IMG/VR virus record: IMGVR_UViG_2687453512_000002
Length of the DNA stretch: 35,348 bases
Direction: 5' to 3' (one strand)
From: a virus
Lineage: Duplodnaviria; Heunggongvirae; Uroviricota; Caudoviricetes
Under the pieces are notes generated by a model. It made no database searches and was not told the DNA's origin. It saw only the letters and a list, made by a program, of their open reading frames with translations. The first letter of the stretch is position 1. Each line of letters opens with the position of its first letter. Position numbers and translations under genes: made by a program. Positions 3,248 to 33,242 of the stretch are shown here, one piece after another.

Positions 3248-3852
3248 TAAGCAGTTGCCCCTTCTAATTCGTCTCGTCTGATGTTGTAAACGTCCTGCGC
3301 TTTGTGCTGCTCCGGCGTCCCTTCGAGCATCTTCCACGCTTTGGCGAACGCCTGTTTAAGCTCTTCTACGGTGTTTTTCTGCATTGCTGCGTCAGTGAAT
3401 GCTTTTAGAACCTGTTCAGGTGTAAGTGATGGTTTTGATTGCTTTGCTGCTGCGTTCTGCTGATGTTTATGCTCGTCTGTATCTGCATCTTTCGCATCAT
3501 CAATGCCGAACAAACCATTGAGGCAATACTTGCGTGCATAAGAGCTTGTAGCTCCCGTAACTTGTGCAGAATCCATTCCTTTCTTGCTTTCTTCCTCTCG
3601 TGCAAGAGCGGTTGCCGTATGACTGTTTTCGCCATCGGTAATAGTTGCCGTGGCTTTCACGTAATACCGATCACCAATCAACACAACTTCATCGCTGATT
3701 GATAAAAACAGACCGTTCAGTAACGGCTTAACGCCTTCAAGAATATCTTCGCAGCTTCTGTATTTATATTTGCCGAATGAGTTGTACTGATTCTTTGGCG
3801 CGTTCAGATTCTCCTGAATAGCTGCCAGTCTTGCGTAAAATTCTTTGCTCAT
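3247..3852 (-). CDS. erf: Erf-family single-strand annealing recombinase (about 201 aa)
   Basis: Translation from the internal ATG begins MSKEFYARLAAIQENLNAPKNQYNSFGKYKYRSCEDILEGVKPLL..., matching the P22 Erf N-terminus as remembered. Confidence 0.85.
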   Translation of the reverse strand: MSKEFYARLAAIQENLNAPKNQYNSFGKYKYRSCEDILEGVKPLLNGLFLSISDEVVLIGDRYYVKATATITDGENSHTATALAREEESKKGMDSAQVTGATSSYARKYCLNGLFGIDDAKDADTDEHKHQQNAAAKQSKPSLTPEQVLKAFTDAAMQKNTVEELKQAFAKAWKMLEGTPEQHKAQDVYNIRRDELEGATA

Positions 3853-4473: not shown

Positions 4474-4944
4474 CTAATAAAACACCCAGTTTTCTGTTTC
4501 TTGGTTGTGTCCAAAGTTATATTCAATACCTGGTGTTGATGTATCAATATTCTTCATCCCATCAACAAGAGTTGATACAACAGCCAAATCTTGTTTGATT
4601 CTCATCAAATGGTATTTCTTCCGGCGCAATAAACTTTCAATGGCAAGTTTCTTCGTCGGGAATGCAAAAGATCTTTCTGCATTTTTTGCTACTTTCTTAA
4701 TTGCATATCTATTTCTCCTTTGTTTCCATTCCTGTAACCACTGATTTGGTGCTGGTTTAAAATTAACAATCCAATGCGCAGGAACCAACCATGCATAATG
4801 CTCTGTCTGATGAAAAGCTATATATTGAAGTGCGAATATTTTGATTCCATCTTCTTCAACTGTCGCTTGGAATCTCCAGAAAACAGGCATTCCATCATGT
4901 TCAGTTTCTGATTCAGGAAAAGGTACGCTCCATGATTTTGTCAT
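4474..4944 (-). CDS. Hypothetical protein (156 aa), AT-rich moron-like gene between N and cIII
   Basis: Complete ORF in a region of visibly lower GC than flanking phage genes; occupies the ral/sieB-type accessory slot; no transmembrane segments. Confidence 0.65.
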   Translation of the reverse strand: MTKSWSVPFPESETEHDGMPVFWRFQATVEEDGIKIFALQYIAFHQTEHYAWLVPAHWIVNFKPAPNQWLQEWKQRRNRYAIKKVAKNAERSFAFPTKKLAIESLLRRKKYHLMRIKQDLAVVSTLVDGMKNIDTSTPGIEYNFGHNQETENWVFY

Positions 4945-4952
4945 ATATCACC

Positions 4953-5252
4953 TCAAATAAGTGGTTTGCTGCCTAATTTCATTTTCTGGCGACCAACACA
5001 AGTCACACCCATTTCACTGCGTGGCTTGCGGTAGTAAATACGATTCTGTTTACTCTCGACTTCATCTGCCTTCTTGCAGCGAAGGATTCCGAGTGATGCT
5101 GCTTTATCCGCTCTGACGCAACCAGAGAGCTTTAGCGCAATTTTTCGCGCCAGTCGCTGTTCTTGCATCGCCTGTTCACGTTGAGCCTGTCTGCGTGCTC
5201 TGCGGCGATTTCTGGCGTTATCGTCAGCCAGATATGTAATGACTACTGTCAT
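4953..5252 (-). CDS. N: Antitermination protein N-like (99 aa)
   Basis: Translation from ATG at 5252 (GGAGG Shine-Dalgarno): MTVVITYLADDNARNRRRARRQAQREQ... carries an arginine-rich motif like the boxB-binding N proteins; first gene downstream of pL/nutL. Confidence 0.75.
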   Translation of the reverse strand: MTVVITYLADDNARNRRRARRQAQREQAMQEQRLARKIALKLSGCVRADKAASLGILRCKKADEVESKQNRIYYRKPRSEMGVTCVGRQKMKLGSKPLI

Positions 5253-30782: not shown

Positions 30783-31133
30783 CTAATTTTTATTCTTTGA
30801 TCTCGTCCACAGGTAAAGAAGAGCAATGGCAAGACAGGAAACAGAGAATAGATAACCTACCTCATATGGTGCGCCAAAAAAATTAGCTATTGATACGGGC
30901 AAAAAAGCCGAAGCGATCAGAATTGAAAGGCAAAAAATAAGCCCAGTAACATAGTTTATTAAACTCTTAAATGAGAAACGTTTTGCTTGATTTACGGTCT
31001 CAGCGAGTGATCGCTTAACGATGGATAAAAGCAAATAGATGGCGACAGTAGCTAATGCCCCTTTCCACCAGTCTGGATATAGTTTTGCGACAATCAGCCC
31101 AAGGAAAACCATGATGACAGACTGAGCATTCAC
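30783..31133 (-). CDS. Small inner-membrane protein (116 aa, 3-4 predicted TM helices); candidate superinfection-exclusion-type moron
   Basis: ATG with AAGGAGG Shine-Dalgarno; strongly hydrophobic; divergent from the 31309..32333 operon; occupies the sieA-type slot. Confidence 0.6.
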   Translation of the reverse strand: MNAQSVIMVFLGLIVAKLYPDWWKGALATVAIYLLLSIVKRSLAETVNQAKRFSFKSLINYVTGLIFCLSILIASAFLPVSIANFFGAPYEVGYLFSVSCLAIALLYLWTRSKNKN

Positions 31134-31308
31134 ACCAACCTCCTTAGTTTTGCGCAGGATACCAGATGATGTATAGGAGTGGGAGTAAAGTTAGTCGGTG
31201 ATAGAACGGTGGTTGCATAATGATATCACGTGACGTAAACTTATTGCGCATAGCGTGTATTCAATGGATGCATAGCTATTGATAATCTCCGATAAGAAGG
31301 AGGTTTGT

Positions 31309-31875
31309 ATGAGCAATGAGACTAATGGGATTGATGAAATGTTTAGCTTGAACGCTGCCAAAGCTGGAGTCGCAATAGGTTTGCTATTACAGCAAGCTTC
31401 TGCGTTCAGTTGTGAGGTGGTTGTTACTGATAACGTTCAGCACGCTTACCATCAATCCTCATTCAGCAGTGAACGGGCTAATGATGAGCTTCATGAGGCG
31501 GTGTCTTCGATTAAAGAATTGTCTCGAATGCTGAAATACGCTTATCGTGTTCTTGCAAACGCTACCGATGAGAATGTAGACAATGTGTTGTCTATCATTG
31601 AACCAGAAAAGTCTCGATTGATAGAGCATCAATTGAGAGGACTTGAAGGGGCAATGAAATCGGTATTCAAAGAAGCTTCTGCTGATTTTAAAGAGATCGC
31701 AAGAGATATCTATATCGTTGTTGCTGATGCCAGATCTGCCGTAACCAACCTGAATAGTCTTATTAAACAACGCTCATGTGTTCCGGTTGTTTTTGATAGT
31801 TCCGTAGATATGGCTGGTTTGCGTGCGCTTGCTGAGCACGGGACTCGTGTGTTTCACTCTGGTAACTTCCACTGA
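31309..31875 (+). CDS. Hypothetical protein (188 aa), first gene of a two-gene AT-rich operon; candidate partner/antitoxin of the downstream YafO-like protein
   Basis: ATG with AAGGAGG Shine-Dalgarno; helical protein with no recognised domain; 8-nt spacer to the next gene. Confidence 0.65.
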   Translation: MSNETNGIDEMFSLNAAKAGVAIGLLLQQASAFSCEVVVTDNVQHAYHQSSFSSERANDELHEAVSSIKELSRMLKYAYRVLANATDENVDNVLSIIEPEKSRLIEHQLRGLEGAMKSVFKEASADFKEIARDIYIVVADARSAVTNLNSLIKQRSCVPVVFDSSVDMAGLRALAEHGTRVFHSGNFH

Positions 31876-31883
31876 GGTAAAAC

Positions 31884-32333
31884 ATGCAAGTAACCGTGGA
31901 ATATAATCAGGATAGTTTTGACTATTTTTTCTCCCCGGTTTTTGTTGAGTTTCCTGATTTAAAACAAACACTTGTAGATGATTTTATCATCTACAAGTCT
32001 ACGGGAACGTTGCCCAGCTATTTTGGCAGAGACACCTCTTATCATCGACCTCCTGATATTGAAGATGCAGGCCTTATGCACCTTCATTTAGCAATTGGTG
32101 AAAATAAATTTGAGCCAATAAAAAATGGCACAGATATCAGCACACCGCAAAAGTTGCAGTGGCATAAAACATCCAATACCGCTCTCGTTTATGCACAAAA
32201 TCTTTTTGATGAGAACAGGTATTCATTGATTGCTCTTTTTCATCCTGTAGCTCACATGTCTGCTAACAATCATAATAGAATGAGAGTGTTAGCAGGGTAT
32301 GCGAGAGACTTTAGAAACACTATGTTTGACTAA
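31884..32333 (+). CDS. YafO-family toxin-like protein (149 aa)
   Basis: Motifs DDFIIYKSTGTLPSYFGRD, LMHLHLA, ALVYAQNLFDE, LIALFHP, NHNRMRVLAGYARDFR parallel the E. coli YafO sequence as remembered; about 37% GC. Confidence 0.65.
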   Translation: MQVTVEYNQDSFDYFFSPVFVEFPDLKQTLVDDFIIYKSTGTLPSYFGRDTSYHRPPDIEDAGLMHLHLAIGENKFEPIKNGTDISTPQKLQWHKTSNTALVYAQNLFDENRYSLIALFHPVAHMSANNHNRMRVLAGYARDFRNTMFD

Positions 32334-32334
32334 A

Positions 32335-32357
32335 CCCACCGTCAGGTGGGTTTTTTA
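32335..32357. terminator. Bidirectional terminator between convergent genes
   Basis: CCCACC-GTCA-GGTGGG hairpin followed by TTTTTT on the plus strand and flanked by an A-rich run on the other side. Confidence 0.7.
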
Positions 32358-32381
32358 TAAGGAGTAATCATGATTTACCCA

Positions 32382-32918
32382 TCAAACAACCCACCAGTTT
32401 GCCTGATTGGATGCCAGCCTTGCAGTTTTTATGGAATTAATTATGCCATGCTCAAGAGCCTTGTTAGCATCCAAAATGGTCGAGTCTGCTATCAGGGATG
32501 CCCACCTAATATGGGTTCCGATGTCGATATTGAACGTCTCAACGAAGCGATCAAGATCGTTATCGAGGCATTTCCCGTACTCTCTCAATCTGGCATGGTC
32601 GGCGGCTGGGGAGGCAAAGCACCATAATAGAGGATGTAACAGGAATCTTGATAATGGGTTTGCGAAACGTTCTGAGCCAGCCAGGAAAACGATATTAGCT
32701 ATGGATTCAACATTGCTTATGTTGTGAGTTCTAACGGTAACAGGGAGTGACTTAAGAAAGTTATACGCAGTAAAGCCAGCAGCAGTTTCCCCTCCCTGAC
32801 TTGATATATGGATATTTAATTCAGTTGCGCCTTGAGATAATGCGGTGAGACAGTGGTTCTGAAGTTGCCCAACAGTGGCAGTGTTAACAGGGCATAAGAA
32901 ATGAATTGTGTGCAGCAT
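32382..32918 (-). CDS. ClpP-fold (S14/S49-like) serine peptidase, 178 aa, translationally coupled to mnt
   Basis: IHISSQGGETAAGFTAYNFLKSLPVTVRTHNISNVESIANIVFLAGSERFANPLSRFLLHPL aligns with the ClpP core (…[42 protein letters not shown]…RVMIHQPL) with Ser and His in the catalytic positions; TAATG overlap with the mnt stop. Confidence 0.7.
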   Translation of the reverse strand: MLHTIHFLCPVNTATVGQLQNHCLTALSQGATELNIHISSQGGETAAGFTAYNFLKSLPVTVRTHNISNVESIANIVFLAGSERFANPLSRFLLHPLLWCFASPAADHARLREYGKCLDNDLDRFVETFNIDIGTHIRWASLIADSTILDANKALEHGIINSIKTARLASNQANWWVV

Positions 32919-33166
32919 TATTTTTCATCCTTAGCATACATGGTCTTTAGCGTCTCAAGTAGCGCCTCTTTGAATTTATCAGCTTCTTGCTGAGCAAATG
33001 ACTCAACTGACTTTGGCGACCTATCTTCATCAATCGCGGCTTGCAAAATCATGACGATCTCGGAGTTAACAGAGCGACCATTTTTTGATGCTCTGACAGC
33101 AAGAGCCTCGCGTAAAGATTCAGGGATTCTTACCGTAGTTGGAGAAATTGACACACCCTTTGCCAT
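32918..33166 (-). CDS. mnt: Mnt-like ribbon-helix-helix repressor (82 aa)
   Basis: MAKGVSISPTTVRIPESLREALAVRASKNGRSVNSEIVMILQAAIDED… with C-terminal …LETLKTMYAK resembles P22 Mnt; divergent from arc. Confidence 0.8.
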   Translation of the reverse strand: MAKGVSISPTTVRIPESLREALAVRASKNGRSVNSEIVMILQAAIDEDRSPKSVESFAQQEADKFKEALLETLKTMYAKDEK

Positions 33167-33189
33167 ATAACACCTTTGGTATTCAATTT

Positions 33190-33242
33190 GATAGCAAAGT
33201 GTATGCAAAAAAATTTTGACTAGATATACTCACTTTGCTATC
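33190..33242. promoter_or_regulatory. Divergent mnt/arc-ant promoter-operator region with a 12-bp perfect inverted repeat
   Basis: GATAGCAAAGTG (33190..33201) and its reverse complement CACTTTGCTATC (33231..33242) flank a TTGACT -35 element. Confidence 0.5.

Follow-up and report, generated by a model that had tools for sequence, protein, structure and literature searches.

What stands beside a YafO-family toxin gene in a phage genome when the gene next to it is not that of the usual antitoxin? The question is raised by a viral record, IMGVR_UViG_2687453512_000002 (IMG/VR; Caudoviricetes), whose 35,348 nucleotides (nt) were analysed as one stretch, called the window here. The window is a P22-like prophage, and its positions 31309-32357 hold two genes: open reading frame (ORF) A, which encodes a protein of 188 amino acids (aa), and ORF B, which encodes a YafO-like protein of 149 aa. 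A preliminary description made from the sequence had presented this region as a two-gene operon, and both reading frames lie where it placed them.

The answer favoured here, with a probability of roughly 0.65, is that the region is a mobile type II-like toxin-antitoxin cassette, possibly an abortive-infection one, carried as a moron of the P22-like prophage and relying on a new antitoxin family. From sequence comparison, what appears to be new is an uncharacterised partner family, different from YafN, that is dedicated to a long-form clade of YafO.

The YafO-family protein and its partner

ORF B belongs to the YafO family. The Pfam model YafO_toxin (PF13957; cutoff 25 bits) matches it over profile positions 3-101 of 101 at 78.9 bits (E = 3.4e-22). 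The toxin of the Escherichia coli K-12 operon dinB-yafN-yafO-yafP is homologous, with 38% identity over 120 residues (BLASTP), and ORF B has lost none of the residues found invariant when 11 sequences, K-12 YafO among them, are aligned (D33, F34, Y37, K38, L43, P44, F47, G48, Y53, H66, H68, L101, V102, Y103, P121, H124, M133 and F143). It is best regarded as a member of a distinct long-form subfamily and not as an equivalog of the K-12 protein, because it scores 79 bits against the NCBIfam equivalog model NF007377, below the cutoff of 153. Long-form YafO proteins (136-156 aa) share a conserved, aromatic-rich N-terminal extension of ~12-15 residues, VEYNxxSxxxFFxPVFxxFPxL, which is absent from K-12 YafO. 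The YafO identity is itself not new, because the Prokaryotic Genome Annotation Pipeline of RefSeq already names the protein 'type II toxin-antitoxin system YafO family toxin'. By homology to E. coli YafO, ORF B is probably an mRNA endoribonuclease toxin; no relative was found in the PDB by sequence or profile search. A truncated 114-aa variant of B (P0019) is present on 8 contigs. The coding sequence of ORF B also contains an inverted repeat (Table 1), with a stem of 8 or 6 bp in the closest relatives and none in distant ones; it was rejected as a conserved regulatory element, being lineage-specific, and probably has no function.

ORF A has no significant match in Pfam, NCBIfam, PADLOC or the PDB, by sequence or by profile. 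Its sole family match is phrog_8416, whose function is unassigned, and RefSeq calls it a hypothetical protein in all records inspected. Comparison with YafN gives a BLASTP E value of 36 and, for the A-family profile, an hhalign probability of 0.3%, and the Phd/YefM Pfam domain finds no match in ORF A; a hidden similarity to YafN was rejected on the BLASTP and hhalign results. The A family thus appears to be a helical one that had not been characterised before and has no kinship with YafN or Phd/YefM. On both proteins the preliminary description was right: it had likened B to the YafO family and had found A to be without a recognisable fold and not of the Phd/YefM type.

The AlphaFold2 (AF2) model of A, with a predicted local distance difference test (pLDDT) score of 76.7, has, from the N-terminus on, a hydrophobic helix (residues 16-33), a disordered linker (35-53), a bundle of three long helices (54-156) and a C-terminal helix (168-183). 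Fold searches with this model return generic helical bundles only. The C-terminal helix is conserved and ends in HGTxVFxSGxFH. Across the whole family the last ~50 residues are the best-conserved part (AKARxxxxxLNxLxxQxTxPxxFESxIDxxxLxxLAxHxT), which makes this segment a candidate toxin-binding element. Such proteins are rare: 6 clusters with the single sequence and 12 with the profile came out of a word-indexed search of 5.8 billion clusters, and an exhaustive profile search of 1.84 billion representatives yields 42 matches, nearly all of 170-190 aa. One match, a eukaryotic protein of 3,239 aa (P0040), is a repeat-protein artefact and was ignored.

The two families occur together. The preliminary description had allowed that A might never accompany YafO-like genes; the reverse is found, with A directly upstream of a long-form YafO gene in all 63 inspectable loci. 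The adjacency holds in all 43 loci taken from collections of viral and metagenome sequences and in each of nine species genomes, which were located by a scan with a closer A alignment (A3) and comprise Buttiauxella, Serratia, Acerihabitans, an unclassified Enterobacterales metagenome-assembled genome, Pluralibacter, Enterobacter, two Pseudomonas and a member of the Orbaceae. It holds in five named phages (HK639, gp17/gp18; Pseudomonas phage YMC11/02/R656, gp093/gp092; PhiR40_1; Klebsiella pJN2-26; and CMS-2020a) and, among the 620 plasmids with a B relative, in all three that were sampled. The distant family members P0035 (26% identity to A) and P0061 likewise lie upstream of YafO. Among complete E. 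coli genomes, A is present in 55 (58 places), and so is B (55 genomes, 58 places).

The surroundings of the pair are of many kinds. It occurs in the gp16/immI slot of P22-like prophages, among siphovirus tail genes near the tape-measure gene (HK639 included), between a Q-type antiterminator and the holin in lambdoid elements, in a siphovirus alongside Arc/Ant genes, in Pseudomonas phage YMC11/02/R656 alongside a CI-like repressor, next to an integrase in some loci, on phage-plasmids, and at a plasmid site flanked by two IS5 copies. The flanking genes vary by locus, closest relatives included, and no conserved third gene, such as the SecB-like chaperone of toxin-antitoxin-chaperone systems, was found: the flanks differ in every context. 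The pair is a horizontally mobile, self-contained module found in unrelated contexts. The preliminary description had placed the cassette in the slot where P22-like phages carry superinfection-exclusion genes. It does lie between a gp16-family gene and immI, but it is not specific to that slot and occurs in many temperate elements.

Relatives of B are encoded on ~620 plasmids, mostly non-mobilizable replicons of ~110 kb, which suggests that in lineages common in the clinic the cassette works as an addiction module for plasmid-prophages. Divergent pairs (L061 and L064) keep a conserved gene order, phoH - gp49-family - grxA - A - B - integrase, and their type of carrier is a ~110-kb non-mobilizable IncFIB replicon of Klebsiella or Enterobacter resembling SSU5-type phage-plasmids. 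The record NZ_CP025328.1, from the extraintestinal pathogenic E. coli (ExPEC) strain XM, holds three copies of the pair, probably because several of its prophages carry the same moron.

The junction between the genes is also conserved. The stop codon of A (TGA, 31873-31875) is overlapped by a GAGG Shine-Dalgarno sequence, and 8 nt separate it from the ATG of B at 31884, an arrangement that would favour translational coupling. The pattern CAC-TGA-GGTG-N4-(A/T)TG is kept in 25 of 30 junctions examined, the window included, and the start codon of B is TTG in 19 of the 30; three plasmid loci show a 10-nt overlap of the genes. Partner first, toxin second and a very short intergenic distance are features shared by yafN-yafO of K-12 and the window. 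Adjacent, co-oriented genes in a single operon, with a short or overlapping junction, are expected of type II systems and are found here, as is inheritance of the pair as a unit across unrelated contexts.

The sequences of A and B have diverged together, with r = 0.89 over 561 locus pairs, a value that none of 999 Mantel permutations reached. In 98% of the locus pairs A is the less conserved of the two (mean pairwise identity 36%, against 51% for B), and both genes are under purifying selection, with dN/dS (the ratio of nonsynonymous to synonymous substitution rates) of 0.11-0.24 for A and ~0.03 for B. Co-divergence with a faster-evolving partner and purifying selection on both is the usual antitoxin/toxin pattern. 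Between the window and one related locus (L008), dS is 0.44 in A but saturated in B, though the B protein is the more conserved of the two; this contrast hints at a recombination breakpoint within the cassette, so that the pair there would be a mosaic.

One locus (L017, positions 4576-5023; IMGVR_UViG_2537562173_000011) has an intact A (100% identity) and a B with a +1 frameshift in a T-run. In the same B the loop of the 13-bp hairpin is flipped, turning TTT into AAA and giving F34K at an invariant residue, a change that resembles a hairpin-mediated template-switch mutation. Keeping A while B is broken is the direction of decay expected of a toxin, with homopolymer sequencing error possible.

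Strict linkage and co-divergence show that A and B function jointly, and they leave the sign of the interaction free. B might instead be an RNase that serves the phage, for example by remodelling transcripts in lytic growth, with A as its activator, chaperone or specificity factor and with no part in toxin-antitoxin biology or defence. Such a role would suit a partner that is far larger than typical antitoxins and has no DNA-binding domain, and several cassettes do sit within late or structural operons, where lytic expression is possible. It is nevertheless quite unlikely. The partner-first order, the coupling junction, the weak TTG start of B and the more rapid divergence of its partner agree with a moron for addiction or defence, as do the cassette's own terminator, its low GC content and its presence on so many plasmids. 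The locus that keeps A with a broken B also argues against it, and E. coli YafO is, according to reviews, an established growth-arresting toxin.

Mechanism and the N-terminal segment of ORF A

The sequence comparisons establish that B belongs to the YafO family, how the operon is built, that A and B are strictly linked and co-diverge, and that the pair moves between contexts. With regard to the toxicity of B, its neutralisation by binding, the lability of A, the trigger, and the benefit to the lysogen or its phenotype, we infer the following scheme for a toxin-antitoxin cassette. B would be a YafO-type endoribonuclease that blocks translation by cutting mRNA. A would be made first and in excess, since its Shine-Dalgarno sequence is strong (AGGAGG, 31298-31303, 5 nt before the ATG at 31309) and B is translationally coupled, often with a weak TTG start. 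A would bind B directly and so neutralise it; the likeliest contact on A is the conserved C-terminal segment (residues ~139-188), and the N-terminal extension specific to the B subfamily may contribute to the interface. In a lysogen or on a phage-plasmid the pair would serve as an addiction or abortive-infection module: depletion of A, through shut-off of host expression or loss of the element, would free B and arrest translation.

Several observations weigh against this scheme. A has no recognisable DNA-binding domain of the ribbon-helix-helix, helix-turn-helix, AbrB or Phd type, so canonical autoregulation by A is unsupported. A scan of 31134-31308 found no convincing sigma-70 promoter upstream of A. 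Neither protein matches the defence models of PADLOC-DB v2 above noise; B has no match there, and the only match of A, at 14 bits (E = 0.0039), is to the coiled-coil C-terminus of ZorA. Structure prediction of both proteins, which the preliminary description had proposed, gave the generic helical bundle for A and failed for B: the AF2 model from a 15-sequence alignment is too poor (mean pLDDT 53.4) for a fold search, and a RelE/BECR fold of B is putative. The inactivated B gene comes from a single locus and could be a homopolymer sequencing error. Finally, a crude heuristic finds signal-peptide-like N-termini in 36 of 46 A-family members, compared with 0 of 16 B proteins and 8 of 61 ORFs of the window, and, were the segment to direct export, A and its cytoplasmic toxin would end up in different compartments.

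It may be, then, that A is exported or membrane-anchored by a Sec signal peptide or signal anchor, and that the pair is something other than a plain type II system acting in the cytoplasm. In one version, export would keep the cytoplasmic pool of A short-lived and so replace proteolysis as the source of lability, and a halt in A synthesis, such as a phage-induced shut-off, would free the YafO RNase. In another, A would be a sensor located in the envelope whose state controls the cytoplasmic RNase B, coupling a membrane event, such as DNA injection by a superinfecting phage, to RNase release. The signal-like character persists across A subfamilies that are otherwise unalignable in the N-terminal region, and its bearers remain linked to YafO. 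Examples, with a slash at the AxA-type site, are MKDSITKIAMVVALALSSLSHGSYA/K (L064), ...LALAIASACAGIAGVAHA/E (P0061), MKFGKLASLIAAVLAFAGAHS/E (P0067) and ...CGVLTQPAALA/E (P0035); they have a positive n-region and a hydrophobic h-region.

This wiring is rather unlikely for the cassette. The signal-peptide calls come from the heuristic only, and some A members, such as those of pJN2-26 and Pseudomonas putida, lack the feature. In the subgroup of the window the n-region is acidic (net charge -1 to -4 in five of six members, +1 in the sixth), the h-region has only ~9 residues and is followed by QQ, and AF2 models the N-terminal segment as a helix (pLDDT ~80). The stretch GLLxQQ is invariant in the N-terminal segment of the phage-borne A subfamily, where it is among the two most conserved stretches picked by a scan; such conservation is not typical of signal peptides and is easier to reconcile with a specific protein contact than with an export signal. 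To our knowledge, a cytoplasmic RNase toxin with an exported antitoxin is without precedent. The segment may be a toxin-binding hydrophobic helix, a membrane tether or a real export signal. That A represents a new antitoxin class with a functional signal-like segment, whether for export-driven lability or as an envelope-tethered sensor, is an unlikely outcome; if true, either version would be an undescribed wiring of a type II-like toxin-antitoxin or abortive-infection system.

Locus anatomy and neighbouring genes

The segment 30700-32400 of the window is 100% identical to E. coli S88, the avian pathogenic E. coli (APEC) strain O1, ATCC 11775 and ~50 other complete genomes. In S88 the cassette is flanked by a P22-gp16-family ejection gene on one side and by Arc/Mnt-Ant-tailspike genes on the other. 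The GC content is 43.2% in ORF A and 37.8% in ORF B; the window as a whole has 47.8% and its structural genes (8000-28700) have 49.7%. The immI-region genes next to the cassette are likewise low, at 40-45%. The features of the cassette are collected in Table 1.

Table 1. Positions and basis of the features of the cassette in the window.
Feature	Position	Strand	Basis or identifier
Predicted 7-bp leader hairpin AAUCUCC/GGAGGUU sequestering the Shine-Dalgarno sequence of A	31284..31305	+	predicted fold
ORF A, 188 aa, putative antitoxin/partner of the YafO-like toxin	31309..31875	+	WP_000064337.1, phrog_8416
Putative translational-coupling junction: TGA of A, overlapping GAGG Shine-Dalgarno sequence, 8-nt spacer, B start	31873..31886	+	sequence
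ORF B, 149 aa, long-form YafO-family toxin (by homology)	31884..32333	+	WP_001198454.1, PF13957, phrog_1651
13-bp perfect inverted repeat inside B, codons for TLVDDFIIYKS	31970..31998	+	lineage-specific
Intrinsic terminator closing the cassette, between convergent genes	32332..32358	+	9-bp GC-rich stem and U-run

The terminator has a folding free energy of -14.9 kcal/mol (z = -3.4), and 0 of 200 shuffled sequences fold as well; it may be active in both directions. Its region gives weak Rfam matches, on both strands, to a terminator-like segment of sroH. A consensus terminator scanner did not pick it up, probably because the U-run is partly counted into the stem. The anatomy of the operon is in these respects as the preliminary description had it: a GC content below that of the phage backbone, an 8-nt spacer with a Shine-Dalgarno sequence and a strong terminator at the end.

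The 5' leader of A (31240-31325) folds at -27.5 kcal/mol (z = -4.0). Both arms of its hairpin are invariant across five P22-like loci, so there is no covariation to examine; a CTCC...GGAG pair is found in a second subgroup of cassettes too. A possible promoter, TTGCAT-N17-TAAACT at 31213-31241, has a position conserved, as judged by eye, in the five P22-like loci; it is weak, matching 7 of 12 consensus positions, and is not claimed. A search for a hidden RNA antitoxin or known RNA element returned no Rfam family above threshold and no tandem repeats.

The second subgroup (L009, positions 3330-3420, with L011, L013 and L015; alignment A5) consists of tail- and late-region insertions and has upstream elements of its own. 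A conserved GC-rich hairpin with a T-run, GCCGAAGC...GCTTCGGCCTTTTTG, lies ~30 nt upstream of the Shine-Dalgarno sequence of A, and further upstream a perfect 7-bp inverted repeat, TTGCTCA-N4-TGAGCAA, overlaps a possible -35 element. These could be a moron-insulating terminator, a leader attenuator or an operator.

Two minus-strand genes border the cassette in the window. On the gp16 side, in the sieA-like slot after gp16, 30783-31133 encodes a 116-aa multi-pass membrane protein without a family match. Unrelated ORFs replace it in related P22-like loci, among them one of 115 aa with a Rap1a match. The 18 nt upstream of its start (31134-31151, ACCAACCTCCTTAGTTTT) contain its minus-strand Shine-Dalgarno sequence and are invariant in all five loci; that this sequence stays constant while the genes change suggests a fixed expression site with swapped cargo. 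On the other side, 32382-32918 encodes a stand-alone 178-aa protein resembling ClpP and head maturation proteases (Pfam CLP_protease, E = 2e-11; phrog_94). It lies directly downstream of the Arc/Mnt-like immI repressor gene (32918-33208, minus strand), its start overlapping the stop of that gene, and the prophage has separate head genes elsewhere. Related A-B loci have the Arc/Mnt-like gene directly after the cassette, with no ClpP-like gene between; only the lineage of the window has it. The gene has the look of unusual cargo controlled by immI.

Cassette and neighbours together form low-GC cargo packed between gp16 and immI, and an antitoxin could in principle owe its lability to a protease of its own. 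The pair might accordingly belong to a larger system with the membrane protein, the ClpP-like protease or both, the protease for instance degrading A. Comparison of contexts largely refutes this, and it is highly improbable: the minus-strand gene upstream of A differs in each related locus (297, 140, 111+75, 107 and 115 aa), none of the other A-B loci examined has the ClpP-like gene, and the pair is found with neither neighbour in tail, late-region and plasmid contexts.

Comparison with known systems

YafN is a 97-aa antitoxin of the Phd/YefM type, whereas A is an unrelated helical protein of 188 aa with a hydrophobic N-terminus. The genetic settings differ as well, the K-12 pair being an SOS-regulated chromosomal operon and the cassette a phage- or plasmid-borne one with a long-form B. 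According to reviews, YafO is among the least understood RNase toxins of E. coli, with no solved structure and a disputed ribosome dependence, and they give it only under the antitoxin/toxin gene order and its own name.

Exchange of antitoxins among type II systems is well documented (NetFlax, PMC10440598). The NetFlax network and the PanA/Panacea antitoxins likewise combine a known toxin fold with a non-homologous antitoxin, on mobile elements and with suspected links to phage defence; the main text of PMC10440598 does not mention YafO or PF13957. A is not a Panacea (DUF4065) protein, having no Pfam match. Panacea is hyperpromiscuous, whereas the A family looks monogamous, because it is paired only with YafO in every inspected locus.

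Exclusion and abortive-infection morons of prophages offer another comparison. P22 sieA lies between gene 16 and mnt, and rexAB of lambda lies beside cI. The cassette, low in GC and with a terminator of its own, occupies similar slots, between gp16 and immI and, in YMC11/02/R656, beside the CI-like repressor. It has no sequence relationship to sieA or rexAB, and its putative effector is an RNase of the RelE-superfamily type and not a membrane protein.

No experimental or dedicated bioinformatic description of A, of either accession or of the A-B pairing was found in the literature. The PhiR40_1 record names its A-family gene 'YafM antitoxin' (A-family hidden Markov model, E = 1.6e-52), and a Pectobacterium pangenome paper lists a 'YafO/YafM' toxin-antitoxin system (PMC10991766). 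These names, in the style of SEED/RAST, indicate that an annotation pipeline has already guessed an antitoxin role; they are labels only.

As a plain toxin-antitoxin pair, the cassette would bring an incremental gain, a further instance of antitoxin swapping; it would be considerably more interesting if the N-terminus of A is functional, and that signal-peptide-like segment poses a concrete mechanistic question. The cassette is compact, at about 1 kb, and is present in the classical laboratory phage HK639 and in clinically important ExPEC/APEC strains of the sequence type 95 (ST95) kind. The long-form YafO clade occurs in Enterobacterales and Pseudomonas, on temperate phages, prophages and phage-plasmids, and with the A family hundreds of RefSeq 'orphan YafO toxin' annotations gain a candidate antitoxin.

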